DNA of 31,354 bases from positions 1 through 31,354 of IMG/VR virus record IMGVR_UViG_2802429225_000007; one strand, written 5' to 3'. Position 1 is the stretch's first letter. Each line of letters begins with the position of its first letter. This document shows positions 962-22,301 of this stretch, piece after piece. The translations under genes were made by a program, and so were the position numbers. A model generated the notes under the pieces. The model was not told where the DNA came from. It saw only the letters and a list, made by a program, of their open reading frames with translations, and ran no database searches. Origin of the DNA: a virus (lineage: Duplodnaviria; Heunggongvirae; Uroviricota; Caudoviricetes).

Positions 962-3174
962 GCTGTTTGTTCCTGTGCGGCGGTGAGGGCGGTGAGGCGT
1001 TCGGTTTTAATGTCGGTGATACGGCGCAGACGTGATCCCAGATACGATGAATATTCTTTATCGCCTTTGGCTTCCGCTGCTTTCCTGTGTACATCCACTT
1101 CGCGGGCGATGAGGCCAAATACCTTGTTTACTTCGTTGGTGGTTACCGCGGCGGCCAGCGTATTGGCAACGTTGATAAGCTTCTCATCCAGTTCCTTACG
1201 AAGACGGGTAGCATCTTCCGCATTCTCGCTGGCATTCTTGATATCAAATTCAGCTTTATTCCTCTGGCGGTATTCCGGATTGTCGTACAGGCCCATGAAA
1301 ATATCGGCGCTGAAACCGAGAGGGGATAGCGCTTTCTTTACAGCATCCGTCCAGGACTTCTTCGGCGCTTCGCCGTCGCTTGTAGGTCCGTATTTAGTGT
1401 CGTAGATATAAGGTGTGCATCCGTAAGCCTCGGATTCACCGCGCACCCCATTCAACATGTACCAGACTCTAACTTTCATGGTGTGGTGCATTTCACATAG
1501 GTACCCGCCAACACCGTCTTGAATCAGATCCCATTCTATTTTTTCACCAACCTGTTTTTTGCGAACTATCGGTGCGCCTTTATCAAAACGCTCTTCCACC
1601 ACCTCTACACCCCAGCCAATACCAAACGGCCCAAATTCGCGAGTCGCTTTCATCGCTATATAAGTGCCGTTGATGGATGTGCCGCCGCCGTTCTGAGAGA
1701 AAGCTTTGGTGAAGCGCTCATCGGTTTTGAATACGTTCTTCCACAATGCCAGGTTATCCGTGTCGCCGGAGTCCTTTAACTCCGTTTCGATAGCTGAGAT
1801 TGCATTCTGCCGCTTGTGCTCTTCGGTATGGATCCGCTCAACCAGCGCGTCAACGTTCTGCACCAGATCCTTTACCTGCTCGCTAAGTTTTTCTTGTGGA
1901 GGAGTCTCTTCTGCCAGGGTAATTGCTGCAGGTTCCCTCTGTGATACGGCGTTATTTTCAGGTACGTCATACACATGGCGAGGCGTGACAAACTGCTCAC
2001 GCAACTGCTGCAAACTACGTTCTCCAGCATTTGCAGCTTCGCTTTTTTCGCCATGATTTGAGGGTGTTTCTGACATCATCCCATCAATTGAGAATCGTCC
2101 GCCGCCGTGGTTGGTGACTTTTACATCGTCCTTCGGTACTGCTTCCTTTGGTTTCTCTTCAACAGCATTTGCATCACGCTTCCCGTTAGCTTGCAGCCAG
2201 TTGTCGATGTGACTGCGCAGGGATTGCGGGAAGTGGTACGTGTCTTTTGCAGGGGCGCTCTGAACGACACCGAATACGGATGCCCGGTCATAGGAAAGGA
2301 TCTGATCCGTTGTGCGCAAGGCCATTGACCAGCGTTTAAAATCCTCCCGGTCCTGGCTGATTATTTCGTCTGCCGCTTTCAGGACGCTGGGAGTGATTTT
2401 TTCCGGGCCAACAGGTAACAGGGCGCAGGCAATTTCACGATCCAGTGTGGCGTGCGTCTGTTTGTAAGGACGTGCGGATGCTGTTTCTGGTATTACCTCC
2501 GGCAGCATTTCATCGCGTTTACCGGGATTCTCTACCCATTTTTTTATAAATTTGGAGATAGTCCAACTGGTCGGGTTTTGTTCCTGGGTATCGCAACTTG
2601 CCAAAATTGCATGTACCAGATTATTCAATCCAGCAATATGCATGTACTCGATGGGCTTACACGCCACCATGGCATCAAGAACGATGCGGTTAAACGCGTC
2701 AACCTCATCCTGACTGTCAGTATCACTGTTGTCGAGCATCTCCAGGTATTCACGCGTCTGCGCAAGCAATTCACTGTCGACTTCGTTGGCATCGTGGCTG
2801 AACAGCAGGACGGCGGCGAAGCGTTCACGAGCAGGCAGTTTCATCAGGTCGCTAACCTGTGCGATATCTGCTGAACCGCTATCTGAATCAGCGGGGGTGT
2901 TAACTACCCATTTTTCGCCATCAAAACTGTGTTCTGTGGCGAACGTCTCATCAAACTCACCGACGCCTGGGCGCGGTTGGCCCGGGGCATCTTCCCAGAT
3001 TTTAGGTTTGAAATAGTTGTCGCCGTGGTCAGGGTAGGCTTCCCACAATTTGCCGATGATGATGTTCTCGGCAACTTTTTTGTTAGGGGCGTCGATGGCG
3101 ATGGCCAGCGCCGGGATCGCGCCGTTTTTGAGCGCGCCTTTTTTCGCTTCTAACAAGCCGTTAAAAATGGTCAT
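958..3174 (-). CDS. large recombination-module protein with C-terminal Erf/Rad52-like single-strand-annealing-type motifs
   Basis: 738-aa ORF; C-terminal region (GPFGIGWG...YGPTSDGEAPKKSWTDAVKKALSPLGF) resembles SSAP cores; start ATG at 3174 preceded by GAGGAAAGACC. Confidence 0.4.
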   Translation of the reverse strand: MTIFNGLLEAKKGALKNGAIPALAIAIDAPNKKVAENIIIGKLWEAYPDHGDNYFKPKIWEDAPGQPRPGVGEFDETFATEHSFDGEKWVVNTPADSDSGSADIAQVSDLMKLPARERFAAVLLFSHDANEVDSELLAQTREYLEMLDNSDTDSQDEVDAFNRIVLDAMVACKPIEYMHIAGLNNLVHAILASCDTQEQNPTSWTISKFIKKWVENPGKRDEMLPEVIPETASARPYKQTHATLDREIACALLPVGPEKITPSVLKAADEIISQDREDFKRWSMALRTTDQILSYDRASVFGVVQSAPAKDTYHFPQSLRSHIDNWLQANGKRDANAVEEKPKEAVPKDDVKVTNHGGGRFSIDGMMSETPSNHGEKSEAANAGERSLQQLREQFVTPRHVYDVPENNAVSQREPAAITLAEETPPQEKLSEQVKDLVQNVDALVERIHTEEHKRQNAISAIETELKDSGDTDNLALWKNVFKTDERFTKAFSQNGGGTSINGTYIAMKATREFGPFGIGWGVEVVEERFDKGAPIVRKKQVGEKIEWDLIQDGVGGYLCEMHHTMKVRVWYMLNGVRGESEAYGCTPYIYDTKYGPTSDGEAPKKSWTDAVKKALSPLGFSADIFMGLYDNPEYRQRNKAEFDIKNASENAEDATRLRKELDEKLINVANTLAAAVTTNEVNKVFGLIAREVDVHRKAAEAKGDKEYSSYLGSRLRRITDIKTERLTALTAAQEQTA

Positions 3175-3204
3175 TGGTCTTTCCTCATTACAGGTCAGTG
3201 GTCT

Positions 3205-3525
3205 TTAGTAGGGGATTTCAACGGTATCTGGCGTGTATTCGATGCAAAGTAACTGCTGGATTTTGTCATCGATAGCAGCAATACGCTGTTGGGCGTCGGC
3301 GGCTGTTTTCTGTTTTTGCTCACTCAGTTGCTCGACCTGTAAACCGATGATGTCGATTGGCTGAGGCTGGTTGACGGTAATTTCAATTTCGCGGCTTTCC
3401 AGAAGGATGTACCTGTCTGGAAAATTTTTTGACATATCAACAGTCGCAACAAGCAGCTTTTCGTGGCTGAAAGTTGAAGTTGCATAATGAATAAAGAGTG
3501 TTACTGGGATGGTGCGCGCTTCCAT
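3205..3525 (-). CDS. hypothetical early protein, first gene of leftward operon
   Basis: 106-aa ORF with AAGGAG RBS 7 nt upstream of ATG at 3525. Confidence 0.5.
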   Translation of the reverse strand: MEARTIPVTLFIHYATSTFSHEKLLVATVDMSKNFPDRYILLESREIEITVNQPQPIDIIGLQVEQLSEQKQKTAADAQQRIAAIDDKIQQLLCIEYTPDTVEIPY

Positions 3526-3679
3526 AGCGACTCCTTGGTGGGGTATACTCAGAACCGATCAGCGGCTCTGTCGTTGGTCTTTCCTCGGTGTAAGGTTGGT
3601 CCCTTGCACCATATCCGAATGGTTTGGTCGCCGTTCGGGGTAACTGGCCCGCCTTGTGCGGGTCTTTTGCCATCTAAAG

Positions 3680-4864: not shown

Positions 4865-5095
4865 ATGGATAAACAACTGCAAGACAAAATTCTTTCCGTA
4901 ATGAGTCAATCCGAGTTAGGGCGGCGATTAGGGAAAAAACCACAAACGGTAAGCCTCTGGTTCAAAGGACGGGTTCCCGGTGAAGAGGTTTTGCGCACAT
5001 CTGAAGCTCTTGAATGGCGCGTGACCCCTCATGATCTTAGACCGGATCTTTACCCAAACCCAGATGACAGCTTGCCTAAAACGGAAGCAGCTTAA
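4865..5095 (+). CDS. Cro-like / YdaS-like small HTH regulator
   Basis: AAGGAG RBS 7 nt before ATG at 4865 (track start 4838 is probably too early); HTH SQSELGRRLGKKPQTVSLW; position right of repressor. Confidence 0.6.
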   Translation: MDKQLQDKILSVMSQSELGRRLGKKPQTVSLWFKGRVPGEEVLRTSEALEWRVTPHDLRPDLYPNPDDSLPKTEAA

Positions 5096-5648: not shown

Positions 5649-5668
5649 CTTATACCGAGGAAAGACCG

Positions 5669-6900: not shown

Positions 6901-8288
6901 ATCCGGAAGAACTGGAAGCGATCGTTCTCGCTGGTCTGATTAACGGTGGCGCGACGCCTGACGCGTTTGATGTGATTGCCACCACTCCGGAGGAAGCTTT
7001 CAGCATTGTGTTTCACCGCCGCGCTTTTAGCGAAATCAAAAAGCAGGCGCTGGCGAACGGCTTCATAGACATGCTGTTTCTCAGTGAATCGCTGGGCGGT
7101 TCCAGCCTTGCGGACCTGTCTCAGATATCCCGAATCCCGGCGACGGTAGCGAATCTGAAAGGCTATGCCGGGAAAATGGTGCAGGCGTGGCGGAGCCGCA
7201 AAATGGCGGCATTGTTGCAATCTGGCGCGGATGGTATCCGTAACGCTGTAAACCAGAGTCAGCGTGATGAGGTTATTGAATCTCATGTTGCTCAGGTGCT
7301 GGATATGAGCGCCGCTACCGGCACAGTCCAGCCGGTACACATCAAAGAGCTGTTACCGCTCTACATTGACACCGTTGATAAACGGATGTCTGGCGACGCG
7401 CAGGAAATGATGCTGAAAACCGGAGTCGAGGATCTGGATGTCGCCCTGGGCGGTATCAACATGACCGACCTTGTTGTGGTTGCCGGTCGTCCAGGCATGG
7501 GGAAAACGGAATTTACCCTGAAGATTATCGATGGCGTTACCGCAGATGGCGGTGGCGCACTGTTTTTCAGCATGGAAATGGGCGCTCAGCAGATTGTTGA
7601 ACGTACCGTTGCCGGGGCTGGGAATATGTCCTCATCGCGTCTGCGTAATCCAAAAGAAATGGACGATGAGGACTGGTCGCGATTAACCGCTGCGCTGGAG
7701 ACCATGCAGGATCGCGATATCTGGATTGTTGATGCCACTGATTTGACGATTGAGCAGATCCGCGCCATTGCAGAGACTCATAAACGCCGTTATCCGCACC
7801 TGAAGTTGATTGGTGTTGATTACATGGGCTTGATCAAAAAACCGAAGGCCGAGCGCCACGATCTCGCTGTGGGGCATATCTCCCGCAACATGAAGACTAT
7901 GGCCATGCGTCTGCATACCCCTGTTTTTGCTCTTAGCCAGCTTTCCCGCCAGGTGGATTCTCGACCTGCTGGCCAGCGTCGCCCGGTGATGTCGGACCTG
8001 CGCGATTCCGGCAGTGTTGAGCAGGACGCTGACAGCATTTTGTTTTTGTACCGCGATGAAGTTTACACACCTGATTCACCTGCAAAGGGTATCGCCGAGG
8101 TGATTATCGGTAAAAACCGTTCTGGCGGGGCAGGTGAAATTATTTATCAGGAATTCAGGAATGGGCATTTCCTGCCAGTTGATCAACACGTAGCACGCGA
8201 AAAATTACGCATCCAGAAGGAGGCAGAACAACCGAGAAAACGTGAAAAACGGTATTCAAACAAAAACTTTAATACGGACCCCTTTTAA
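6897..8288 (+). CDS. replicative DNA helicase, DnaB family
   Basis: Walker A GRPGMGKT, SQLSR and RDSGSVEQDADSILFLYRDEVY motifs typical of the DnaB C-terminal domain. Confidence 0.85.
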   Translation: MNPEELEAIVLAGLINGGATPDAFDVIATTPEEAFSIVFHRRAFSEIKKQALANGFIDMLFLSESLGGSSLADLSQISRIPATVANLKGYAGKMVQAWRSRKMAALLQSGADGIRNAVNQSQRDEVIESHVAQVLDMSAATGTVQPVHIKELLPLYIDTVDKRMSGDAQEMMLKTGVEDLDVALGGINMTDLVVVAGRPGMGKTEFTLKIIDGVTADGGGALFFSMEMGAQQIVERTVAGAGNMSSSRLRNPKEMDDEDWSRLTAALETMQDRDIWIVDATDLTIEQIRAIAETHKRRYPHLKLIGVDYMGLIKKPKAERHDLAVGHISRNMKTMAMRLHTPVFALSQLSRQVDSRPAGQRRPVMSDLRDSGSVEQDADSILFLYRDEVYTPDSPAKGIAEVIIGKNRSGGAGEIIYQEFRNGHFLPVDQHVAREKLRIQKEAEQPRKREKRYSNKNFNTDPF

Positions 8289-8326
8289 CCACGCCTGACC
8301 AGCGTGAAATAACCGAGGAAAGACCA

Positions 8327-8737
8327 ATGACCACCACTCCAGGCAAATTAGAGTACCCGTCGGACAAAGGACACATAGACGACGGTAAAAACTATCTCGA
8401 CGTCATTTTGTGGAATATGAACGTCGGGCCACGTGCGCGCACTCGCGCGGTTTTTGTGCCAAGACCCAAAGCAGGCAATTTTTCAACCCCTGCTCAACCT
8501 GCCTGTCAGGCATCCGTGGCCACAGCGCCAGCAGTGAAACGTAAGGGGAAAACGCACACCGGGATCGCGATTCGCAGAAATGGCGAGCGGCAAGTGAAAC
8601 TCCACGAAACAGCGACAACCTGGTGTGCCTCACCGCATGAAACTTACGACAAGATAACCGGGCAGCGCATTGGCGCGCCTGGTCGCTGTCGCCTGCTGCT
8701 GAGTTCCATCACTCCGATAGCAAAGAAAGGGGCGTGA
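8327..8737 (+). CDS. hypothetical nin-region protein
   Basis: 136-aa ORF; CCGAGGAAAGACC RBS motif before ATG. Confidence 0.45.
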   Translation: MTTTPGKLEYPSDKGHIDDGKNYLDVILWNMNVGPRARTRAVFVPRPKAGNFSTPAQPACQASVATAPAVKRKGKTHTGIAIRRNGERQVKLHETATTWCASPHETYDKITGQRIGAPGRCRLLLSSITPIAKKGA

Positions 8738-9743: not shown

Positions 9744-9763
9744 TACTGTATATTTATACAGTA
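9744..9763 (+). promoter_or_regulatory. LexA (SOS) box overlapping the colicin-like gene promoter
   Basis: TACTGTATATTTATACAGTA, 19/20 to the CTGT-N8-ACAG consensus; candidate -35 TTGACG at 9710-9715 and -10 TACCAT at 9733-9738. Confidence 0.7.
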
Positions 9764-9820
9764 TTTGAAGAGGTGATTATCTAATATCTCTGGGAAATAA
9801 TTATTAAAAGGAAAGTTGAT

Positions 9821-10972
9821 ATGGCATGGACTGGATTTGGAGGTCAATGGAATAACGGTGTGCATTCTGGTGGTGATGATTCTGGCAGTATAGGCGGTGG
9901 AGGCATAAAACTCGACGGCAAAGGGAATCCTGTAGGTACTCGTGCGCCGACAGCCGAGGAGATCGCGTCACAATGGAATAGTTTTGGCGGTAGTCAGATT
10001 AAACCCAGTGATGTATCGAACATCAGGCCGGATGGTGGCGGTACTTATCAGGCTAACATTGCAGGTAATTACCATGTTGTAAGTTCTCAGGGTGCGAATA
10101 CCCCATTTGCTTCGGAACGTAGCAACGTTGCGGCAGGTTTTAGTGGCGGTGTGGGGCCAGCGCCTGGCGGGAGTGCTAACAATAGTGCGCCCAGCAATCC
10201 AAAGGCTGAGGCAGAGGCAAAGAAATGGATTGAAACAGTCAAGGCTGTTCGGGCTGGTAATATCCCCTACGGTTATGTTCTTAACGACGGCAAGGTAGGC
10301 GTAAACGTGCCTCAATATGTTGAACGCCGCAAAGGTCGTGGCGACACATATACCGTTCGGGGTAAAGATTTGTTTGTTGTTTCGCCTGAACTGACAAAAG
10401 CGTATCAGGACGGTCTTGCGGAACGTGCTGAGATTCTGGACGCCGTAAAATTTACGTCTGATTTCTATAAAGACCTTGCAGGTAAATTTGGACAGCATAA
10501 CGCGAACATCGCAAAGGAACTGGCGGAGGCTGCAAAAGGCAAGAAGATTCGTAACAGCAGGGATGCACTGGCGGCGGTGGATAAATTTAATAACCGACTG
10601 AGTAAAAAGTATGGTGCCAAAGACCTTGAGGCAGTTGCCAGGGCTTTGGAATCGGTTAACCGGGATGCAATGGCGAAGAATTTGTCTAAATTTGGTAAGG
10701 CATTTGGTGTCGCAAGTTATGCTGTAGATGCTTACAATGTTCTTTACGTTGAATTTCCGAAAGCTATTCGTACTAAAAACTATCGCCCAATGCTTGTTAA
10801 GTTGGAGGCAATTCTTCTTGGTGCTGATGCAGGTATTGTTGCTGCGTGGGCATTTAGTGCGCTTCTGGCAACGCCGATGGGTATTCTGACGTTTGCGCTT
10901 ATAATGGCATTGCTAAGTGCGATGGTTAATGAAAAACGCATTGAGGAACTGAATAAGTTCTTAGGGATTTAA
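9821..10972 (+). CDS. pore-forming colicin-like bacteriocin (channel-forming colicin C-terminal domain)
   Basis: Gly-rich N-terminus; C-terminal domain aligns by eye with colicin E1-type channel domain (AKGKKIRN, AIRTKNYRPMLVKLE, hydrophobic hairpin, ...KFLGI terminus); AAGGA RBS. Confidence 0.8.
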   Translation: MAWTGFGGQWNNGVHSGGDDSGSIGGGGIKLDGKGNPVGTRAPTAEEIASQWNSFGGSQIKPSDVSNIRPDGGGTYQANIAGNYHVVSSQGANTPFASERSNVAAGFSGGVGPAPGGSANNSAPSNPKAEAEAKKWIETVKAVRAGNIPYGYVLNDGKVGVNVPQYVERRKGRGDTYTVRGKDLFVVSPELTKAYQDGLAERAEILDAVKFTSDFYKDLAGKFGQHNANIAKELAEAAKGKKIRNSRDALAAVDKFNNRLSKKYGAKDLEAVARALESVNRDAMAKNLSKFGKAFGVASYAVDAYNVLYVEFPKAIRTKNYRPMLVKLEAILLGADAGIVAAWAFSALLATPMGILTFALIMALLSAMVNEKRIEELNKFLGI

Positions 10973-11344: not shown

Positions 11345-11730
11345 CTATGTTCCTTAAGTGTAGAACTCGTCTAACTGTTTTAACCATCCAGAACTCTATG
11401 AATAACATAACATACCAGTCGTTACGAGAGTAAAAGAAAACAATTGGTGACGTTTCTGTATCCGAAATATATCAAATAATAGATATTAAGAATTGTTTCC
11501 TAATATCTATTTGAGGTGTTTATGGATAATATCTATGACGACGAATTGTTCGCAGGGTTTATTGCAAGAGGGGAGCTACATAGTGTTGAGTACCCACTGA
11601 ATGTAGAGAATGCGGACACAGGCTGTTTGAAGTTGATTGAATTGACTTAGAAAAAGCCCGGGGCTATAGTTTCCGCGCAGCCGCAAAATCGGTTGCCGGG
11701 ATTGGCGTCCCGGATATCTAAGTGACGCAT

Positions 11731-11751
11731 AGCCGCGTTAGCGGTTTTTTT
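11731..11751 (+). terminator. candidate intrinsic terminator
   Basis: short GC hairpin (GCCGC-gtta-GCGGT) followed by T7 run. Confidence 0.3.
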
Positions 11752-11912
11752 ATGTGTTAGGCACGGCCACATTCGCATTATGGTGGGCTGTGTGGGGGCT
11801 TCTGCGGAAGCGCCGGGTTCACTTAGCCGGTTACGCCAACCCTGCACAGTTCACCACCAGATGATTGGCGTCGCTGGTGGTGATGAAAAAAACACTAAGT
11901 GAGGCCACTGCG

Positions 11913-12701
11913 ATGACAGTCCAAATATCTGCGGAATCCCTTTCTCCGCTACATCATAACCAACTTCCCGTCATCACTACTGAATTGCTTGCCAGTTTGT
12001 ATGGCACGGAAGTAAATGGTATCCAGCAAAACTTCAAGCGCAACATCGCCAGATTTGTCGTAGGAAAGCATTTTTTTAAGCTGGAAGGTAATGAATTACG
12101 CGACTTCAAAAACAGACTGACAGATAGTCAGTCAGTTGCTAAACATACCCGATCCCTCATTCTCTGGACAGAACGCGGCGCAGCTCGCCATGCCAAAATG
12201 CTGGAAACAGAACAGGCCTGGGAAGTTTTCGAAAAGCTGGAAGATTGTTATTTTAGCCAGCGTCCAGAGAGGCGGAGTACAACCACCGATGACCGCACCC
12301 CCTTACGTGATGCCGTTAATATGCTGGTCGGCAAGAAAGGCATGATGTATCCCGATGCTTATACCATGATTCATCAACGCTTCGCCGTCTCTCACATAGA
12401 ACAACTGTCACAGGCGCAAATGTTAGAGGCGATTGAATACATCCACTGCCTGCTGCTCGATGAAAATCAGCCAACTATTCCGGATTTTTCTTTTATCACC
12501 ACTATCAAAAATGGAAAAGTGACCAGGATGCGCCATGTTGCCAAAGGCGAACATCTGATGACTTTTGACGCTTTCAAAGAGATCGCTGAGCGGGCAGGGT
12601 ATCTGGTGATCCACAGCGACAATCTGCGAAGTATGACACTGGATAAATTGATGCTAATGGGGAAAAAGTCGGCTGTATCCTTTGCTGATTCAGCATTTTG
12701 A
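11913..12701 (+). CDS. phage antirepressor (ORF6N-domain, Ant-like), putative
   Basis: GAGG RBS before ATG 11913 (track start 11865 is probably upstream of the true start); N-terminal region resembles antirepressor ORF6N domain. Confidence 0.5.
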   Translation: MTVQISAESLSPLHHNQLPVITTELLASLYGTEVNGIQQNFKRNIARFVVGKHFFKLEGNELRDFKNRLTDSQSVAKHTRSLILWTERGAARHAKMLETEQAWEVFEKLEDCYFSQRPERRSTTTDDRTPLRDAVNMLVGKKGMMYPDAYTMIHQRFAVSHIEQLSQAQMLEAIEYIHCLLLDENQPTIPDFSFITTIKNGKVTRMRHVAKGEHLMTFDAFKEIAERAGYLVIHSDNLRSMTLDKLMLMGKKSAVSFADSAF

Positions 12702-12879
12702 CAGGTTGAATGTTTGGCGCGGTTATACTCTATTTGCGCTTAAAAAGGTATTTGACCACGACCAGCACGAGACCGAATACCTCTGTCAAAGTACCGCCCA
12801 TATAAAACAGTTACATATGCACTTGATGACTAAGCTGGCACCAGGTTAACACCAGGCGCCAGCTTGAAGGAGACTTCAG

Positions 12880-13803
12880 TTATTGGTTTCTGAGGAACGC
12901 GATTCTTGAAAGGGTCATTTGCGTCTGGCAGTCGACCATTTTCTTGACTTCAGCATCTGTTCCCTGCATTGAAACTTTACCGCACATTGCGTCCTTCGTT
13001 TTGATCCACTGGCGCTGAGAAGGCAGCAACTCTTTTTTCTTCGCCGGGGTTAACTTGCTCCAGACGGTACTCAAATCAGAGTCAGCATTCGCAAATGCCA
13101 TTCGGGACTGATCAAGGCTTTCAGATTTTTGCGGCTGAAGTTGTGCCTGTCTCTCTTTTTGCTTCTCCGCCTCATACCTGGCCTGTTCCTGTGCCCTGAG
13201 TTGCACCTGTTGTTCCGCTTCAATTTGGCTCTGTTGGGCATCCTTAGCCTGCTGGATTTTCTGCTGCTCAACGATCGGGGTGATAATGGAAAGCGATGTC
13301 AGTAAAGCGGCGCCCACTGATATCGGATTATCAGTAGAGGTTTTTACAAAAACGTTTTTCTGATCGTCGGTCGCCTGCACGGTGTAGGTGATACGTTTTG
13401 AAAAGGCGTTTGCGTTGTTCTCCAAAAACAGGTTTTCCATTTGCTTGTCGAGATTACGATTAAAATTCTTTCTGTAAGCATCTGAAAGCTGGACGTACTC
13501 GTTCGCAGGTAGAGTCATCGTCACGGTCCCTTCACAAGTTTTCATTGTGCTGCCCGTGTCACTTGATGTTGTGGAGATTTCAGAGACGGCTAGTTTGATC
13601 TTGTCCAGTGTGCTTCGTTTGGTCTGATTAGTGACATCAGGGTATTTATCGACCTGTTCAGATAGTCCTTCATAAGCAGATTTTTTTAATAAATCCATAA
13701 GCGCTGACTGGGTTATTTCCGAAGAACAACCGATCACATCTTTTTTGTTATCACAGCCTGTAAGGGCAATGGCGAGTAAGAGTACTGAGTATTTTAATCT
13801 CAT
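12880..13803 (-). CDS. lipoprotein with Gln/Glu-rich coiled-coil segment (cargo/moron)
   Basis: signal peptide with lipobox LTGC (MRLKYSVLLLAIALTGC); 307 aa. Confidence 0.65.
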   Translation of the reverse strand: MRLKYSVLLLAIALTGCDNKKDVIGCSSEITQSALMDLLKKSAYEGLSEQVDKYPDVTNQTKRSTLDKIKLAVSEISTTSSDTGSTMKTCEGTVTMTLPANEYVQLSDAYRKNFNRNLDKQMENLFLENNANAFSKRITYTVQATDDQKNVFVKTSTDNPISVGAALLTSLSIITPIVEQQKIQQAKDAQQSQIEAEQQVQLRAQEQARYEAEKQKERQAQLQPQKSESLDQSRMAFANADSDLSTVWSKLTPAKKKELLPSQRQWIKTKDAMCGKVSMQGTDAEVKKMVDCQTQMTLSRIAFLRNQ

Positions 13804-14256
13804 GAATTCCCTTTAGAGTAAGGATTGGTTTTTAAGACGCGGTCTGTAATCAGTTCCGAGAGCTACAGTAAACAACGCTGAGCACTGAACGCATCACAGG
13901 CAAGGTAAAAGGTGATATCGGCAAAGGCTGTGAAACCTTTAATTCAACGGATGGGAACGGTATGCACAGGATCCTGTAACGACGCTCCCAAAACCGGAAA
14001 CCTGTAAGGCATGTTTTCGCTGCTGAACTTAATATACGAACCTGCACTATCATGAACATATTTTATATCGTTATAGCCCGAGTGATTGTGCCCGGCAATA
14101 GATAGTGTCCTGGAGGAACTATTTCTACTGTAAAAGGAAGATATTTAATTTCGGTGTGGGATTATTCCCTGTTGTTAATAACCATGGCTGTATATGGCAC
14201 TGAGCAGGCATTGGCTTTTTTAAAATTTAATTGCGTTATTAATATCACTTAATTTT

Positions 14257-14817
14257 TTATTTTAAAGTACAGCCTGCCCGAAAGGCACTGCTAATTTCAA
14301 CATATTCCGCTCTGGCCGCACCTCTAAGTTTCTGAGACTCACGTTCAAAACTCGCCAAATCTTCCTTACATTTTGCCGAAGTAGACTGGAATCCTTTCCC
14401 GCACATCTGAAATGTGACTGTCGGATCCGCAAATCGGGTACGCTGGGTGTAAGCCTGGCAAACAGCGGATGCCCTCGCTTGTTTTTGTCGTGGGCTTAAC
14501 GGGCGTGCTGGTGTGGCCTGTTCTGCCTTCTCCATTTTCAGGTGGTAGCAGCTTAAATTACGAGAGGCGATCACCTTTTTAATAGCTTGGGCGCGGCGAT
14601 AATTTTCATTAAATTCAGGATGAGATGATGGATTAAGGTTGAGCAATGGCTCTATATTATCTTCTGCCTGGCAAAGCTGTGAATCGGTGTACTGCGCAAG
14701 TTTTGCCGCCTCGATTGCAGCCGGATCTGGTTGTGAATTTTTTTGGGTATGGCTTACACATCCGGACAGCGTAAATCCAGCGGTCAGTGCTAAGATGATT
14801 TTTGATATTCCGTTCAT
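14257..14817 (-). CDS. lipoprotein (cargo/moron)
   Basis: signal peptide with lipobox LSGC (MNGISKIILALTAGFTLSGC); 186 aa. Confidence 0.65.
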   Translation of the reverse strand: MNGISKIILALTAGFTLSGCVSHTQKNSQPDPAAIEAAKLAQYTDSQLCQAEDNIEPLLNLNPSSHPEFNENYRRAQAIKKVIASRNLSCYHLKMEKAEQATPARPLSPRQKQARASAVCQAYTQRTRFADPTVTFQMCGKGFQSTSAKCKEDLASFERESQKLRGAARAEYVEISSAFRAGCTLK

Positions 14818-14948
14818 TTTCCATTCCTGTTTCGATGTTTTGGTGGTGCACTTTCCCCACTCGGATAAGATTATGCATTCGGATTCGAGTGATGAGGCAA
14901 CGCCATATAGGCGATGGCAGCCAGCACGATGGTGATTAAAATATTTAA

Positions 14949-16184
14949 TCAGAATTTCCGTTCTTTCCAGCGTTTAACCAACGCGGCCATGTTCAGCGGC
15001 CATAATTTAGGCTCAATCACTTTGCCTTCAAACATCGCGCCGAGCTCAATACCTGGGGCAAAATGTACGGTCATTGTTTCAGGGTTGACGGCCATCAGCT
15101 CTGCGTCTAGTAAGTCGTGTATCGTTGGAGTCAACAACAGGCCATTATCAGCGCTAAAATTGCCTGAGGTAGCTGGCTCAATGTGCGCCGCTTGCAATCG
15201 TTCGCCGTTCTGCCAGCCAGTCACCGCGCAACGGCCAGCAAAATTATTCCATACCCATTCAACAAACTGCATATGCGCCGTCGCGTCGCGCTGCTCAACG
15301 ATGCGCTGCGCGGTTCGGGTACTGTGGAGTTTGACAGGTTGGCCAAGTGCGGGCGCGGGTTTCTCTTCCTCCACGACGACCACTACTTCCTGCGACATGA
15401 TGATTCGATCATCGGCTACCAGTTCCGGAACAACGTCGGCCAGCTTCTCGGCTTCTCGGATGATTTGCTTTTCTTCCTGCTCATCCAGGTACCGCTGCAC
15501 CAGTTCAATGGTCGTGGTGGCTTCATGCTGGTGTTTGTGGATATAAAGCTCAACATCACGACGCTGGCTGGCTGGAATGTGTTTTGCCAGAAAATCCTGT
15601 AGGACGCGATTATCCAGCTTTGTCGTAACTTTTGATGTCATGCTCACAGAATCATACCGTTTCGGTGTTTCCATCTGCGTTGATTGCAGGCCTGGTAATT
15701 CGGTGTTGATTTGAGCGGAAACCTTGCGCGGGATGATTGTCGGCGTAAATGCTGGCGTGCTGGCCTGGGACGTGCCACGGCGACGGGCATTCTCCCAAAG
15801 GGCTTCTGTTTCAGGGTTTTTGCGTGCGCCTGGCTTTTGCATAGGCATAGTGCGAATCAGCGCTTCCCAGCCCATATTGACCTTCTGTTTGGCCTCGCGG
15901 CGTTTATCGGCCAGCGTAGGTTTTGATGGTCGTTTTTTGGAGAGCGCTTTCTCTGGTTTTAACTTGATGCCGCGCGATAAACCATTTATCAGCGTTGGAT
16001 GCACTGATAAGGCTTTGGCCAATTGCAAACCGTTTAAATTGCTGCCATCTGTATAAGCGTACATAAACAAATCCGCCCAGCCATCATGTTGAGGGGTCAT
16101 ACCCACGCTGGTTAAGGCTGCGCGAATCTCTTTTTTGCGAGCTTTGTCCAAGTTAAATTTTTGGGTTTTATTTCGCTTAGTCAT
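14949..16184 (-). CDS. HNH-endonuclease-domain protein with basic N-terminal region
   Basis: C-terminal CAVTGW...AAHIEP...NGLLLTPTIHDLLD resembles an HNH nuclease motif; 411 aa. Confidence 0.55.
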   Translation of the reverse strand: MTKRNKTQKFNLDKARKKEIRAALTSVGMTPQHDGWADLFMYAYTDGSNLNGLQLAKALSVHPTLINGLSRGIKLKPEKALSKKRPSKPTLADKRREAKQKVNMGWEALIRTMPMQKPGARKNPETEALWENARRRGTSQASTPAFTPTIIPRKVSAQINTELPGLQSTQMETPKRYDSVSMTSKVTTKLDNRVLQDFLAKHIPASQRRDVELYIHKHQHEATTTIELVQRYLDEQEEKQIIREAEKLADVVPELVADDRIIMSQEVVVVVEEEKPAPALGQPVKLHSTRTAQRIVEQRDATAHMQFVEWVWNNFAGRCAVTGWQNGERLQAAHIEPATSGNFSADNGLLLTPTIHDLLDAELMAVNPETMTVHFAPGIELGAMFEGKVIEPKLWPLNMAALVKRWKERKF

Positions 16185-16295
16185 TTCAGTTCAGCACACT
16201 AATAATGGTAACCGTGACCGCGGCAAACACGATCCCCGAAATATGCATTACTGCAGTATATTGGCTACGATCTAAAATCCAGTCTCATTCCGAAA

Positions 16296-17120
<825 letters not shown>

Positions 17121-17185
17121 TCAATTGACAACTTATAGTTCCCACTAGTTAGCATTAAGATTTTTACAATGAGGAATAATCAATG

Positions 17186-17242
17186 TCCGCTCCTGGCACA
17201 GAGTGGACGAACAACTGAAGACCCGCTGTGAGCGAGAAACAG
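17186..17242 (+). repeat. ~60-bp palindromic intergenic element, copy A (most diverged)
   Basis: aligns with copies B and C, core CTGAAG-N-CCGCTGTGAGCGAG. Confidence 0.55.
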
Positions 17243-17395
17243 ACATCACAACTCACAAGGATTATACGCAGTTTGTTATCCAAACATACGGGTGCCAAGT
17301 GTTATAATCCGGCACTAACAGCATGATGCTTGGAAGTGCATTTAAATGTAAAATGATAGTGTACTCTGACTGAAGCCTGGTAAAAAGGAACTGAT

Positions 17396-18763
17396 ATGTA
17401 CAACAACCTCTATGCCCTCACAGAAAGCCTTTTCTGGGTTGATCGACTTTTAGATCAGGAATATGAAAATATTGGATTGAATGAATTGCTAATTGAGTTA
17501 GATGAATATAATAAAAGAATAGATTCACTGATTATCGAGCAAGCAAATTCTGTACAGGAGTCTCGGCTAAATGTTTACATGGCGGGAAATCGTAATATTG
17601 AAAGGTATAAGAGTGGACTGTTTTCAATGGACAGAGTCATTCTTGATGATGTTCTGTATTCATTGAGCCTACGATACAGAGTGAGTCTAACAGAAAATGC
17701 ATTTGAAAAAATTATTGTAAGCGATAGAAAAGAGAAGGTTGAACATCTCAGGAAGGAAATTGCTAGATTTATCAGGTTTGCTAAAGAAAACTTTGATCTT
17801 ATCCGTGGTGAGTTTATCGTTTTTGTACGAAGCGAATCTTCTATTAAAGATTCGGAGAGGGGCAATGGAATTTTAGACGATAACTCTGATGCTAATTTTA
17901 TATATCGATATCTCCCTCCTAATATTGCCCGTCTTTATGAAAATAGACTATCCGTAAAGAATATAGAACGTCTAGGTAACACAAATAAAATTCGGTTATT
18001 AAACAAAAATGTTTTATCGAATGAAATTATGTTGGAAATTAAAGACTGTGAAAGTTTATATACAAATGGATATATGTATCAACATATAAAAAATGCCATT
18101 GATAATGATGATGGCTCCATATCTATGGAGCTTGTCATGGGAAATCATAGCGGAAAAAAAAGTTATGAACGGTGGGTGCAGGGAGCAAAAAACCGTACGG
18201 TTCTCTTTCATTATAAAAACCTTATTACTGACCTTAACCAAGCGCATTCATGTAGAGCATCCCTGGGTGCATATTGCCCGTTTCATGGAGAGATTCTTCG
18301 TAAACTTGATCAAAAGAATGAAGTTCAGAGGGTTAAACTCTCTATAGACGTTCCATTCTTAGAGGGACTGACTCCAAGTGAACTCTACAAAATTAGAACT
18401 GACTACGAGCCGAGTTTTAATTCTTTCCGCTCTGTACTACGTGAAGCTGCGTATGATATAGAAGCAGAAAGTGATTCATATAAGAGACAACTAATAAATC
18501 AACATTTTGTCGAGCGGGTGTGGGATGAAGGATTGACAGATATTGAGCAAAAAATACAAGCCTATAAGCGGAAGAGTAAAAAAGAACTTTTTCTTAACAG
18601 TGTGCCTTCATTGATAGGTTTTATTGGTGCACCAAATCCAGTGTCGTTGGCTACAGGAGCTTTTACGATTCTAAAAGATGTCTTTAATATTACAAGCCAT
18701 TCTTCAGAAATAAAGAGCCACCCTTCATATTTCCTTCTCATGATGTCAAAAGCCAAAAAATAA
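17396..18763 (+). CDS. hypothetical protein, AT-rich cargo gene (candidate defence/abortive-infection protein)
   Basis: 455-aa ORF with AAGGA RBS; strongly AT-rich relative to the prophage backbone; no recognised domain, one weak Rx4H motif (NRTVLFH). Confidence 0.6.
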   Translation: MYNNLYALTESLFWVDRLLDQEYENIGLNELLIELDEYNKRIDSLIIEQANSVQESRLNVYMAGNRNIERYKSGLFSMDRVILDDVLYSLSLRYRVSLTENAFEKIIVSDRKEKVEHLRKEIARFIRFAKENFDLIRGEFIVFVRSESSIKDSERGNGILDDNSDANFIYRYLPPNIARLYENRLSVKNIERLGNTNKIRLLNKNVLSNEIMLEIKDCESLYTNGYMYQHIKNAIDNDDGSISMELVMGNHSGKKSYERWVQGAKNRTVLFHYKNLITDLNQAHSCRASLGAYCPFHGEILRKLDQKNEVQRVKLSIDVPFLEGLTPSELYKIRTDYEPSFNSFRSVLREAAYDIEAESDSYKRQLINQHFVERVWDEGLTDIEQKIQAYKRKSKKELFLNSVPSLIGFIGAPNPVSLATGAFTILKDVFNITSHSSEIKSHPSYFLLMMSKAKK

Positions 18764-18890
18764 ACCTTATGACTGAGGCAGTAGAAAATAAAGTGAAAAT
18801 ATATTCACTTAAGAAAAAAAGTTCTAAAGGGACATAATTAGATTAACCCAGTGACCTGTTCCCCTTGAATCAACATAGGCTGTTGTTAGC

Positions 18891-18957
18891 TACTTCCGCT
18901 TCTGACACGAAGCGGACAAAAAACTGAAGGTCCGCTGTGAGCGAGGAGCGGAAGTTG
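18891..18957 (+). repeat. ~60-bp palindromic intergenic element, copy B
   Basis: CTTCCGC...GCGGAAG terminal inverted repeat, internal hairpin CCGCTTC-tgacac-GAAGCGG, 3' core CCGCTGTGAGCGAGGAGCGGAAGTT shared with copy C. Confidence 0.6.
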
Positions 18958-19099
18958 ATTTTATTGAGAGTAAAACAGATCTATAGTAAATGGTCTTGTT
19001 ATGTAGGGGATTTACGATAATTTTACTACCAAGGTCGTTAAAAATTCATATGAAATATCAACGATAGTGACCTATTTTTCATAAGGCCACTATATGAAT

Positions 19100-19762
19100 C
19101 TATTGTTCTATTTTAATTTTATTTAACGTTATAGGGGCTGGGTTATAGCTAGGTATATATAATATCTCACTCCCTAGCTTGCGCTCTTTTATATTCACTT
19201 CTTTAGCGACAAGGTTACCGTCATACAACCTAATAATCACGTAGTCTTTAGATTGATCATGAAAGTAACTAAATTCTTTTTTTAATGACGCTTGTTGTAA
19301 ACCAATTAAGAAACTAAATGTCATTATGGCAATAAGGGGAAGGGTTGCGGACCAAATTAAATAACTTGGATTACGTTTATGATTTTTAACAATTTTGTGT
19401 ATAATATAAGTAACTGTTGCTATCGATAAACTTAAAACGAAAAAACCACCATATTCAGTCTTATGTCTATAAGACTGAACAATAAAAACAATCATGATAA
19501 AAACTGTAACTGCAGTAACTTTAACTGCTTTTACTTTACTTTCAGGCCATGGAGTAAAAAACATCAACATAACACAAATTATATTAAAAAATAAATATGA
19601 CATACCCACGAATAAAAATTTAGAATCTAACGTTATAAACTCCATAGGATAATCAAAATGATATGCATAGCCATATTCAAATGAAATTGCAGACATATAA
19701 GATAGAACAGTTATTGCCAATATTAGCAAGGCTTCCTTGCTTTTTATAAAGTCAATTATCAT
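19100..19762 (-). CDS. polytopic membrane protein, AT-rich cargo gene
   Basis: 220 aa with ~5 hydrophobic helices and a soluble C-terminal tail; very AT-rich; weak RBS. Confidence 0.55.
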   Translation of the reverse strand: MIIDFIKSKEALLILAITVLSYMSAISFEYGYAYHFDYPMEFITLDSKFLFVGMSYLFFNIICVMLMFFTPWPESKVKAVKVTAVTVFIMIVFIVQSYRHKTEYGGFFVLSLSIATVTYIIHKIVKNHKRNPSYLIWSATLPLIAIMTFSFLIGLQQASLKKEFSYFHDQSKDYVIIRLYDGNLVAKEVNIKERKLGSEILYIPSYNPAPITLNKIKIEQ

Positions 19763-20086
19763 GATATTTGTTTTTTAATGAATAAAATAATCACTTACCA
19801 GACAGTTAATCTTCTTAATTGTCATTGTGTTCAGTGAACCCCGAATTTTTCTCAGTTCTTCTGAAGAAGTCCTCATGTATATGATAACAACCAAAAAAAT
19901 TTTTTTCACTAATTATACTAAAATCTATGAAGAATCAGCAGTGTGAAGCAGGGAGAATCTCTAACAAGAGACGCCGTCATTTTGTAAATTTCCCGGCAAA
20001 CCAGATCATCTGCTTTTAGACATAGGATTCAATGTGCTATTACGGCGAGCTGTTCCCACAGATTGATGGAGATAGATGTTAGCAAT

Positions 20087-20157
20087 GCCCGCTTTTGGTA
20101 CGAAGCGGGCAAGCTAACTGAGTTGAAAGTTCGCTGTGAGCGAGGAGCGGAAGTTCG
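20087..20157 (+). repeat. ~60-bp palindromic intergenic element, copy C
   Basis: hairpin GCCCGCTT-ttggtac-GAAGCGGGC plus identical 3' core CGCTGTGAGCGAGGAGCGGAAGTT. Confidence 0.6.
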
Positions 20158-20240
20158 TAATTGTTCTCGCAACTAGGGTAGCTAAAAGACACGGCAGGCA
20201 AATGTCTACATGTAGGATACACTTGCTATTATCAAGAATT

Positions 20241-21019
20241 TTAGTCCTGAAGCATTTTAACTTTCTTCTCATGTTTTTTATATTCGCCATTTATCCATTC
20301 AGGTTCTTCCCGAATAGCTGAGCGCATACAGTATGTTGGGATATCATTCCAGAAAGCTGTAATCGCATCTGCAAACTCTATAAACTGTGTTTCTGTAACC
20401 TCAAGTTGCTCATGACGTAGACTAAATCTGTAGCCTCTTGGAATATTGATATCCTGATAATACTCAGGATGCGCGACGGAAAGCACCCGATGGGCATGGC
20501 CATCACCGTGCTTATAAACATTAACCACTTGGCGACAGGCATCGATTTTTTCGTAATAAGCCTTGCTGGTGATATCCATCCCAATCCATTCTAGAATTTC
20601 AATTAGCCTTGGGAAGCTAATGTCCCAGATCATCGATGTTATGGATTTAGCGTCGAGCCAATGGCTGAATTCTCTGATACACTTCTCTCGAAGTTCCTTG
20701 TCGAACTGATGAAACATTCCTGCTGTCAGAGCAAGGGAAACCGTATTTTTCATATCACTGAGAGCAATCCAATGTGAAATTCCTTCATCATGAGCCTGTT
20801 CACAGATAGCCCCTTCGTCGTCATAATCGGGGTCAAAACGCTTACCGGCGGCCTCATAGTAATCTTGTTCTCTCTGCCTGGCTTCAGCTTCAAGATCAGA
20901 ATCGCTAAACTGCGAAAATAGACGCTTTCTGGCTTCAGCAACATAAAAATTGTGTTTGTCGAGGAAGTAAGACCGATCAATGGTTGCAAAATAAAAAGTG
21001 AAAAATCTTTGTTGCTCAT
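20241..21019 (-). CDS. hypothetical cargo protein (~259 aa if corrected); frame interrupted by a 1-nt deletion in a T5 run near the 5' end
   Basis: ATG 21019 with GAGGGAG RBS; after MSNKD the plausible frame is -1 (…FFTFYFATIDRSYFLDK… continuing in frame into the 170-aa track ORF 20241-20753); A5 run at 21001-21005 on the plus strand. Confidence 0.5.
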
Positions 21020-21424
21020 GGGGATCTCCCTCGTTTTGTCAGTTGTACAAGCCCCTGGAAGTAGGCTACTAATAAAGAAAAAATTACCTTTGAATAACTG
21101 TGCAAGATAGCAGTACGCCTAAAAGTAGTGCAAGTATCCCAACCAGGATAACGATGCGTTTTCAAATATCTGACTTAACGCTTGCGATATCCGCTCTGGC
21201 AACAAAGTGGACTGTCAGATTAAATTTGTCTTCACGCCATAGATGTGTCAGCTCATATCTTATCTAATACACACAAGATTCTCTCATTCTTAGAGAATTA
21301 ATCTTTTAAGGGTGGGTGTTGACGTTAGAACAAAAGAATAGATATTTTTGAAGCATATAATATGAGCTATAACCATAGAACGCATATAAAAGCTTACGGT
21401 GTGGTCTTATAATTTGGCACAAAT

Positions 21425-21449
21425 GATTTACTAACCTGCTTCGGCGGGG
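21425..21449 (+). terminator. candidate intrinsic terminator (UUCG-loop hairpin plus T-run)
   Basis: CCTGC-ttcg-GCGGG followed by GCTTCTTTTTT. Confidence 0.3.
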
Positions 21450-21528
21450 CTTCTTTTTTATAGACTTCACGATGTGAAAACGAATAATAAACTGTGCAAA
21501 TAATGCAGTTTTATTATTCGAGGTAATT

Positions 21529-22170
21529 ATGAAAACCTTCTATGAGGGCTGGCCTGAAACTTTCGTTAGCCGGTTAGATATGTTACGAGCTCTGGATGAT
21601 CGCGGCTCGACCCGGAGGCTCTATCTTGAGCGGACCGGGGCAATATTTGACGCTCTGGCAGAAGAGATACGTACAGCCGTTACCAGTCATCCTGAAATCG
21701 ACGCGAGTGAACTTGATATCGGGCCGCTGTATCGCTATTACAAACATGGTGGAAAGGGGAATCCGCTGGCTGACTTACTTATTGAGTTAGCTCCACCAAC
21801 CTGTGAACGGGTTCGTATATCTTCTGAAGTGTACACAATTCCGTATCTTTTTTTTGCACTGTTGATAGCGCAAGGCGCTGACAACGATGCCCGCGATTTT
21901 TTCAATATGATGATGCGATCGTTGATCATCGCCTACCGTTTCAAACAACTGGCGCGCTACCTTGGCACGAAGGGCGGAGGACGACCACAGCACAGATTAA
22001 AAAGCGAAGCCATTGAACTGGCTGATCGTTTTTTTACTGAAAACCCGACAGCGCCATTATCGCGTGGTGTGCAATACATATCCGGTATTTTTGTGGTGAA
22101 ATACTCTGACCCACCTGCAGCGTCGACGATTAGAAAATGGTTAATTTCAATTTACAGGAATGATAAATAA
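21529..22170 (+). CDS. hypothetical protein
   Basis: 213-aa ORF, backbone-like GC content, no recognised motif. Confidence 0.5.
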   Translation: MKTFYEGWPETFVSRLDMLRALDDRGSTRRLYLERTGAIFDALAEEIRTAVTSHPEIDASELDIGPLYRYYKHGGKGNPLADLLIELAPPTCERVRISSEVYTIPYLFFALLIAQGADNDARDFFNMMMRSLIIAYRFKQLARYLGTKGGGRPQHRLKSEAIELADRFFTENPTAPLSRGVQYISGIFVVKYSDPPAASTIRKWLISIYRNDK

Positions 22171-22281
22171 TGACCATAAACGGTTTAATCCCCTATAAAA
22201 CCGTTTAGTAAAATTCACGACGTGAATATAATTGTTCATTATTCCCTCATTGTATTTGGCGTTATGACAAATGCCATAAAA

Positions 22282-22301
22282 TACTGTATAAATGTACAGG
22301 T
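22282..22301 (+). promoter_or_regulatory. LexA (SOS) box-like operator upstream of a small ORF
   Basis: TACTGTATAAATGTACAGGT: CTGT-N8-ACAG core intact, ~16/20 to consensus; sits ~20 nt upstream of ATG 22322. Confidence 0.55.

Follow-up and report, generated by a model that had tools for sequence, protein, structure and literature searches.

The DNA examined here, the whole 31,354-nucleotide (nt) stretch of IMG/VR record IMGVR_UViG_2802429225_000007 (hereafter the window), belongs to a lambdoid Escherichia coli prophage, and the cargo region between its antirepressor and its nin/Q genes holds an array of genes separated by copies of a palindromic element of ∼85 bp. Each element is made up of two short inverted sites, which we call P5 and P3, and the elements most likely mark the swap points of single-gene cassettes, many of them anti-phage, that are exchanged among enterobacterial phages, plasmids, and chromosomes. 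The exchange is probably site-specific and carried out by a 202-amino acid (aa) tyrosine recombinase acting in trans. Homology between related loci breaks in the centres of the sites, one cassette is found between such centres in both lambdoid and P2-like backgrounds, the arrays run in one direction, and the recombinase gene is itself flanked by halves of the two sites.

Results

A covariance model built from 24 family members was run over the window with filters off and returned exactly three copies of the element (A, B, and C), all on the + strand, in agreement with the three direct-orientation copies of an earlier note on this DNA. The element consists of two inverted 24-bp sites, P5 and P3, with a spacer of 12–20 nt between them, and each site is a dyad in which 8-bp arms enclose an 8-bp centre (consensus GTCCGCTC-CTGGCACA-GAGCGGAC for P5 and GTCCGCTG-TGAGCGAG-GAGCGGAC for P3). 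P3 is the reverse complement of P5 save for three conserved mismatches, and the centres of the two sites differ at two fixed positions. Many copies extend outward, into GTTAGCAA at the left and into TTGCTAAC or TTCGTAAT at the right. When 24 distinct copies were aligned, mean column identity was 75%; in a set of 165 distinct full copies, TGGCAC was the exact P5 centre of 68% and GAGCGA the exact P3 centre of 84%, and the centre types were never swapped between P5 and P3. Both sites thus have the inverted 7–8-bp arms around a 6–8-bp central region that characterize core-type recombination sites. The layout described in the earlier note (a 5′ hairpin, an ACTGA-type spacer, and a 3′ core) was correct, as was its statement that B and C match at 24 of 24 core positions while A is more diverged: the 24-nt core CGCTGTGAGCGAGGAGCGGAAGTT is identical between B and C (0 expected, from 100 shuffles), and the covariance scores place A lowest, its divergence being strongest in the 3′ arm.

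Copies B and C fold better than their shuffles on both strands (z −4.5 to −5.6; for B, 200 of 200 shuffles were beaten at z = −5.6), and B has convergent gene ends on its two sides, with TTGATTTTATT coming after it, as might be expected of a bidirectional terminator, an insulator, or a structured RNA travelling with its cargo. Such a role in RNA or transcription is nevertheless very improbable. Complementarity within a copy (0.681) was no better than that between random copies (0.676±0.011), and when long-hairpin and two-hairpin structures were tested, ∼85–88% of cells were paired but shuffles did equally well on all except one weak measure, so that pair counts support a fold weakly. Because no covariation was seen beyond the consensus, we read the family as conserved double-stranded sequence and not as a conserved fold; even the loop and mismatch nucleotides are conserved as sequence. 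A terminator scan of positions 12700–21600 listed 11 sites, none of them at A, B, or C, and Rfam gave no match to the element even at E≤10. The terminator option raised in the earlier note finds no support on two further counts, as the three elements have no T-tract and element orientation is independent of gene orientation, with 132 array genes on the same strand as the element and 124 on the opposite strand.

We compared about 200 loci all against all and clustered the end-points of homology. The elements contained 13.0% of the 1244 breakpoints as compared to 1.2% in random sets (maximum 2.0% among 200 sets), an enrichment of ∼11-fold. Crossovers were placed more finely with a linkage map, in which agreement at variable positions was scored for pairs of sites sharing their backbone side but not their cassette side. 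At P3 (143 pairs) agreement remained at ∼0.9 until the T/A preceding GAGCGA and had fallen to the all-pairs baseline right after GAGCGA, and at P5 (223 pairs) the switch from backbone to cassette occurred inside TGGCAC. The crossover therefore lies inside the central region, as it does in core-type sites, at a resolution equal to the invariant 6 nt. The same boundaries are seen in a 1.17-kb cassette that is common to the lambdoid prophage L006 and the P2-like loci L070 and L071 (96% identity): its junctions fall in two site centres, and the backbones diverge on the left side of the P3 sequence AGCGGACATTTAG and on the right side of the P5 sequence TTTTGGCAC. Because the junctions lie in site centres, we take the mobile unit to begin at the centre of one P3 and to end at that of the P5 that follows.

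An enrichment of breakpoints within elements would also arise if the elements were portable homology, that is, linkers without a dedicated enzyme between which RecA or a Red/RecT-type recombination system swaps the DNA intervening between copies in phages, plasmids, and chromosomes that reside together, as has been proposed for the stem-loops (PeSL) of T4-type phages. We consider this unlikely, although it has several points in its favor: the window lacks a cognate recombinase, the 24 identical nt shared by B and C are near the minimal length for efficient homologous recombination, BLAST end-points of full elements fall in three zones and not one, and the literature on phage hot spots invokes homologous recombination (PMC9122126). 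However, the linkage switch is complete within 6 nt at each centre despite equally conserved arms, and the copies are just ∼75–80% identical overall. Portable homology would, moreover, leave no role for the two fixed centre differences or for the 8-8-8 dyad, and it would not call for a conserved recombinase gene embedded between half-sites.

The arrays have a marked polarity. Among loci with at least two hits, 87 of 90 had all hits in the same orientation, and the median gap between neighbouring elements was 1.43 kb. The 256 array-encoded proteins fell into 201 clusters; in phages and islands the families included DarTG, RES, AbiG/AbiT-type, and candidate defence proteins, and in chromosomes LysR, GNAT, MFS, and SDR. 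Cassette exchange, which the earlier note had listed among its options, is thus supported by the comparative data on breakpoints, on the shared cassette, and on one-orientation arrays.

Element B matched 927 of 5426 complete E. coli genomes at 1–4 places each, mostly at ∼75–78% identity, and none was annotated among the matches listed. A degenerate pattern for the P3 core was found in 36 IMG/VR stretches and in 101 stretches of species-representative genomes from many genera of Enterobacterales (Enterobacter, Citrobacter, Erwinia, Rahnella, Pantoea, Serratia, Yersinia, Klebsiella, Salmonella, and others). Related sequences were present in 1521 plasmid records, mainly from Klebsiella, and the plasmids were large (72–575 kb) among the matches listed; phage records with a full element numbered only 4. 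This distribution bears on whether the element is a host repeat of the repetitive extragenic palindrome (REP) kind bound by a host factor, or else a replication-fragile palindrome of which recombination is a by-product. Its two inverted palindromic units and short conserved linker do resemble bacterial interspersed mosaic elements (BIMEs) and REP doublets (REPINs), and one P5-type copy was found in an intergenic region of the core genome beside nanQ. We nonetheless judge an origin of this kind hardly credible, as the element occupies 1–4 places per genome and not tens to hundreds, its copies are otherwise confined to accessory and cargo regions, and neither Y1 nor a REP-associated tyrosine transposase (RAYT) ranked among the 25 Pfam families found most often in 117 array and 90 flank proteins. 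That the copy number excludes a generic REP element also disposes of the third option in the earlier note. Palindromes with known instability in E. coli are much longer than the arms of the element, a difference that counts against a fragile palindrome.

Clustering of the array-encoded proteins brought out a recurrent 202-aa protein with a complete tyrosine-recombinase catalytic domain (PF00589, E = 5e-19) and little beyond it. Residues R53, K81, H150, R153, H176, and Y185 were invariant in 18 homologues ranging from Escherichia to Idiomarina, and homologues, bearing only generic names, formed at least 8000 clusters across Gammaproteobacteria. Together with ∼45 nt on each side, the gene is 86–94% identical at the nucleotide level in Escherichia, Enterobacter, Rahnella, and Yersinia, and these flanks are half-sites, namely the reverse complements of parts of P3 and P5. 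Read in element orientation, the recombinase unit (∼0.7 kb) comprises the outer arm and centre of P5, the gene on the opposite strand, and the centre and outer arm of P3, such that the gene takes the place of the spacer in a full element. The same flanks were found in Proteus (87% protein identity) and in a marine integrative and conjugative element (ICE; 83%). At each of the 7 loci ascertained through their elements, the recombinase was on the strand opposite to every full-scoring element, and when loci were instead ascertained through the recombinase, all 4 Proteus loci and 2 of the 3 E. coli loci had full elements on the other strand no more than ∼3.5 kb away. Of these E. coli loci, one is the cargo region of a lambdoid prophage, like that of the window, and one of the Proteus loci has an additional same-strand element ∼4.4 kb away. 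No recombinase was seen among the commonest Pfam families of the 90 open reading frames (ORFs) that flank arrays.

Two further features of the recombinase were observed. Its C-terminal ∼50 residues are near-identical from Escherichia to Idiomarina and Pseudoalteromonas (alignment A6, 18 homologues), and its overall identity of 76–97% is unusually high for such distant genera. A 39-bp palindrome, CATACTCAAATCTCC-N9-GGAGATTTGAGTATG, lies over the start codon of the gene (∼8730–8775 in L003, where the E. coli Nissle/CFT073 copy of the gene occupies 8124–8732; also in L101, L153, and L178) and may be an autoregulatory or translational control element.

The structure of the unit raises an alternative in which the elements are internally deleted recombinase units that spread by insertion, in the manner of MITEs (miniature inverted-repeat transposable elements), the cassettes being simply the DNA between insertions. 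The ends of the recombinase unit do carry the outer arms and centres of P5 and P3, so that a full element resembles a unit minus its interior; the arms are inverted repeats, and internally deleted copies of the unit that retain just the two ends exist in E. coli (H210–H214). The unit, a possible autonomous parent, encodes a tyrosine recombinase and has its boundaries at site centres rather than at outer ends. An origin by insertion is still improbable. No target-site duplication was seen at the junctions examined, and solo P5 and P3 sites are common, bordering a single variable locus in P2-like phages. In addition, the same cassette moves between backbones that have only the inner halves of the flanking sites, and neither the one-way polarity of the arrays nor their one-gene spacing would be expected from independent insertions.

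In the window, the array runs A-[455 aa]-B-[220 aa]-C-[170+89 aa]-D, where D is a terminal half-site. Its features are as follows (covariance model scores in brackets; ORFs from the ORF list).

17176–17255, + strand: element A (56.9 bits, E = 8e-15)
17185–17208: P5 site of element A, GTCCGCTC-CTGGCACA-GAGTGGAC (arm scan)
17209–17220: spacer of element A
17221–17244: P3 site of element A, outer arm decayed, ACCCGCTG-TGAGCGAG-AAACAGAC (arm scan)
17256–18884, + strand: cassette 1, with a 455-aa ORF at 17396–18763 (+)
18885–18964, + strand: element B (82.4 bits, E = 2e-22; inverted repeat I15)
18894–18917: P5 site of element B, centre TGACAC, 1 change from the family TGGCAC
18918–18929: spacer of element B
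18930–18953: P3 site of element B, intact
18965–20077, − strand: cassette 2, with a 220-aa membrane-type ORF at 19100–19762 (−)
20078–20163, + strand: element C (79.7 bits, E = 1e-21)
20087–20110: P5 site of element C, centre TGGTAC, 1 change from the family TGGCAC
20111–20128: spacer of element C
20129–20152: P3 site of element C, intact, core the same as that of element B
20164–21188, − strand: cassette 3, with ORFs of 170 aa (20241–20753, −) and 89 aa (20750–21019, −)
21189–21260, + strand: terminal half-site D, a solo P5 arm with a conserved block, forming the right border of the array

The queried 4.9 kb was 98.6% identical to a prophage in E24377A, SE11, and four further strains (TUM13936 is among its carriers), and a search of isolated phage genomes with the region gave no match at ≥85% identity. 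Between the window and the related prophage L006, identity is ∼96% over the antirepressor, PD-T4-3, and element A; homology spans element A, ends at 17246, and is back at 21190. Half-site D, which the earlier note had missed, has only the 5′ arm (21189–21212, ATCCGCTCTGGCAACAAAGTGGAC with a 1-nt deletion, by arm scan), followed up to ∼21260 by a conserved block of ∼50 nt, TGTCAGATTAAATTTG..CACGCCATAGATGTGTCAGCTCA, and the same arrangement of solo P5 arm and block was present in L006, L021, and L030 by alignment. Because this arm and block stand at 21189, where homology with L006 resumes, we define the array as A-B-C plus the terminal half-site D.

The 455-aa ORF of cassette 1 had no match in Pfam, PADLOC, or PHROG. 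A homologue with 89% nucleotide identity lies in a chromosomal island of E. coli O157:H7 17B6-2 (L002, 5768–7454), where it begins directly after a P3 site, with a diverged full element (45 bits) before it and none after it; its neighbours there are type I restriction-modification and DarTG. The 220-aa ORF of cassette 2 gave a weak match to 7TMR-DISM_7TM, under the Pfam cut-off. The stretch occupied by cassette 3 is unlike L006, and its 170-aa ORF matches phrog_19541, a family of unknown function.

Directly left of element A, at 16296–17099 (−), lies a gene whose full-length product is PD-T4-3, an anti-phage protein of the GIY-YIG kind (PADLOC, E = 7.9e-138; Pfam LEM-3_GIY-YIG), and this position is conserved in L006. 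L006 lacks the 3.2 kb at 13001–16203, where the window has the last part of the LprI-domain gene together with a 186-aa ORF and the gene for a 411-aa HNH_2 protein. No border site was found at this indel between the window and L006, and it is therefore attributed to another kind of rearrangement. The proposal that the elements mark every intergenic junction of the cargo island was thus too broad, as the 12.8–17.1 kb stretch (LprI-domain, 186-aa, HNH, and PD-T4-3 genes) has no copy; in the comparison with L006, edges of homology coincided with A and D, and those of the 13001–16203 indel had no element. A weak fourth copy suspected at ∼11731–11816 was not an element, since Rfam identifies that stretch as isrK, C4 antisense RNA, and its a1b1 target and the covariance model finds nothing there.

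IsrK (11677–11751), C4 antisense RNA (11776–11861), and the c4 a1b1 target (11664–11716), all by Rfam, form a block directly upstream of a 278-aa antirepressor-like ORF (11865–12701), and the combination corresponds to a P1/P7 immI-type control of an antirepressor within a lambdoid prophage.

The solo site and block seen at D led to a known locus. In viral genomes the conserved block following a solo P5 was found in 65 stretches, with 46 distinct left flanks and one conserved right flank, a tail-fibre assembly gene. In L056 the order by PHROG was tail fibre, assembly protein, variable genes, and tail sheath, which is the Z/fun locus; this gene order in P2-like phages is confirmed in PMC3091744. 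The left border of the locus, a conserved block with a solo P3, is the inverted counterpart of the right border. GenBank records AJ512676, AJ512679, AJ512681, and AJ512683 describe the ‘proviral Z-region’ of P2-like isolates with annotated left and right inverted repeats, and our P5-plus-block query matched the ‘left inverted repeat’ of these four records at 82–97% identity. The annotated left repeat includes the reverse complement of P5 and the conserved block, and the right repeat includes that of the conserved block and P3; single P5/P3 sites inside inverted repeats were thus already annotated in GenBank records of 2003–2004. Half-site D of the window aligns with these Z-region borders, and the arms of A–C are homologous to them. 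The Z-region of P2-EC48 (L203, AJ512681), which has three ORFs, also contains a full element, unannotated, between ORF1 and ORF2. The P5-plus-block border was present in 2679 of 5426 E. coli genomes (49%).

Two peculiarities of individual border copies were recorded. In L203 the full element is at 1391–1475, and 3166–3256 is a ‘right inverted repeat’ placed inside ORF3, an indication that its coordinates were deposited incorrectly. In E. coli LAM_HS (L098) a copy resembling P5 plus block (77% identity) is found at 5000–5084, just downstream of nanQ in a core region, and adjoins a 101-aa ORF annotated as ‘transposase’ and a truncated DUF1016 gene.

Elsewhere in the window, near-identical palindromes CTGTATATTTATACAG of the LexA-box form CTGT-N8-ACAG occur at 9746–9766 and 22279–22299, the one upstream of a 383-aa ORF (9821–10972) and the other in the nin region. 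A translation-initiation block, ACCGAGGAAAGACC(A/G)ATG, occurs four times (3168–3186, 3570–3589, 5649–5667, and 8315–8333) at gene starts of the early region, on both strands.

Discussion

These observations are consistent with a mechanism in which each element is the junction of two neighbouring gene cassettes and is composed of two core-type sites in inverted orientation, a cassette being the DNA from one P3 centre to the next P5 centre. Strand exchange by the 202-aa recombinase would take place inside the central 6–8 bp of P5 or P3. We infer both that this enzyme acts on the two sites and that the sites pair like with like: the two fixed differences between their centres should restrict P5 to partners of the P5 type and P3 to partners of the P3 type. 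Like sites in direct repeat would then permit excision or integration of a gene together with one element, and a P3...P5 pair would permit a double-crossover swap of the intervening cassette with any other locus that bears P3...P5. Such a mechanism would account for junctions at the centres, the asymmetry of P5 and P3, one-way arrays, and the absence of a rule for gene orientation, as well as for the solo sites at P2 borders and the presence of the same cassette in unrelated phages.

Several findings weigh against this mechanism. The crossover can be placed only to within the invariant 6–8 nt, most backbone-shared pairs derive from one lineage (the P2 Z locus) and so are not independent as backbones, cassette-shared pairs numbered only 5 and 8, and BLAST end-points of full elements also pile up at the outer edges and in the spacer. 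By tblastn, the window encodes no recombinase of the 202-aa family, and only a minority of E. coli genomes carry the enzyme (a recombinase unit in 904 of 5426, ∼17%); in four marine ICE loci the recombinase and its half-sites are present with no full element nearby. No specific NCBIfam model covers the protein, a PDB search by sequence gave no relative, and its putative cognate role comes from linkage of the gene to half-sites. Lastly, the array in the window may be inactive, or a fossil, as judged from changes at otherwise conserved site positions (A looks partly decayed in its outer P3 arm, B and C in their P5 centres, and so does D).

In working principle, integrons come nearest, together with the pdif modules known from Acinetobacter plasmids. 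Like integrons and their integrase-lacking attC clusters (CALINs), the arrays described here have palindromic sites in one orientation and very diverse cassettes, mostly of a single gene, and a tyrosine recombinase is the likely enzyme. However, no IntI-type integrase or attI was found, the near-identical prophage of E24377A having only a phage integrase annotated at the prophage end. The outer boxes of the element (GTTAGCA...TGCTAAC) are in mirror order to the RYYYAAC...GTTRRRY boxes of attC; unlike attC, the element conserves sequence and not fold alone, with no covariation, and unlike genes in integron cassettes, those in element arrays point either way. The candidate recombinase is also small, at ∼200 aa as compared to ∼320 aa for IntI. 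Because of the missing IntI and attI, the mirrored boxes, the conservation of sequence rather than structure, and genes that are not co-oriented, we conclude that this is not an integron. The pdif modules are flanked by inversely oriented XerC/XerD sites, and they share with the present cassettes the form of discrete modules, bounded by two inverted recombination sites, that recur in different backbones. The sites described here nevertheless bear no sequence relation to dif (11-6-11), the candidate for the enzyme is not XerCD but a small, dedicated recombinase, and the hosts are phages, chromosomes, and plasmids of Enterobacterales rather than plasmids of Acinetobacter.

Other comparisons are less close. 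Engineered recombinase-mediated cassette exchange uses heterospecific lox or FRT sites, each of which recombines only with its like, and has no excision step; flanking sites with differing centres are common to both, although here the pairing rule is one that the two centre differences would predict. Invertases of the FimB/FimE type are likewise tyrosine recombinases of ∼200 aa; they lack an arm-binding domain and work on short inverted repeats, and the 202-aa protein weakly resembles the NCBIfam ‘tyrosine-type DNA invertase’ PRK09871 (E = 8e-6, far below cut-off). There is no family-level match, however, the sites and setting are different, and what changes is cassette content and not orientation alone. 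The promoter early stem-loops (PeSL) of T4-type phages flank small accessory genes in hyperplastic regions and provide promoters and homology for general recombination. They are similar in that short conserved stem-loops are linked to gene shuffling, but no promoter signal is present in the elements, and junctions are confined to 6–8 nt.

Three other identities were considered and rejected. A resemblance to enterobacterial repetitive intergenic consensus (ERIC) sequences, also called intergenic repeat units (IRU), was suggested by primer sequences and did not hold, since an E. coli ERIC copy that was fetched shares only GTGAGCGA with P3. The likeness to ColE1/pMB1 plasmid backbones proposed in the earlier note, or to a primosome assembly site, is real over ∼20 nt only (cagtgagcgaggaagcggaag versus ctgtgagcgagg-agcggaag) and does not amount to homology, the covariance model having given no hit over the ColE1/pMB1 stretch cagtgagcgaggaagcggaag (L201, 336–356). 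Tn3-type inverted repeats with target duplication were suggested by the arm length and the GGTC...CTAAC ends and were dropped because the repeats continue into conserved backbone and no duplication was seen. The element is thus neither an integron nor a REP or ERIC sequence, and neither a terminator nor a relative of ColE1.

Judged by sequence, the nearest described objects are the inverted repeats of the P2 Z-region, which are homologous to the arms of the element. Those repeats similarly border horizontally acquired ORFs, and gene content between them varies among otherwise related genomes. The Z locus lies between G (tail-fibre assembly) and FI (tail sheath), whereas the array of the window lies between antirepressor and nin/Q, and in the window, unlike at the Z borders, two sites are fused back-to-back as junction elements within an array. 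The Z-region records are presumably those of Nilsson, Karlsson, and Haggard-Ljungquist (Mol Biol Evol, 2004), the title of which reportedly proposes site-specific recombination. The border repeats are therefore prior art. In the literature searched, by keyword and by site sequence and with the 2004 Z-region paper outside that scope, no enzyme was named for the border repeats, and neither the junction element and its arrays in Enterobacterales, nor crossovers mapped to site centres, nor the linked recombinase had been described.

A wider reading, toward which we lean slightly on the sceptical side, is that Gammaproteobacteria could possess a second cassette system, independent of integrons, in which a highly conserved tyrosine recombinase of ∼200 aa and heterospecific 24-bp P5/P3 sites excise, integrate, and swap single-gene cassettes. 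Its cargo would be anti-phage defence genes, virulence ‘morons’, and small metabolic or regulatory genes, and its venues would be the Z/fun locus of P2, the lambdoid antirepressor-nin region, large plasmids, and chromosomal arrays; the system would be recombinase-mediated cassette exchange as it occurs in nature.

To account for the traffic of defence and ‘moron’ genes into and among the fixed hot spots of temperate phages, the published proposals covered here appeal to cos ends and to homologous recombination, and none comes with a mechanism that has been tested (PMC9122126). Were the elements only portable homology, they would still be useful marks of cassette boundaries, although the finding would be more ordinary. 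If site-specific exchange is correct, one cloned gene together with short synthetic sites would suffice to put hot-spot shuffling to a direct test, and genome engineering would gain a compact heterospecific site pair with a 200-aa enzyme. It would also explain how the same cassette comes to be present in unrelated phage families, and P3...P5 would serve as a sequence signature for the discovery of new defence genes.

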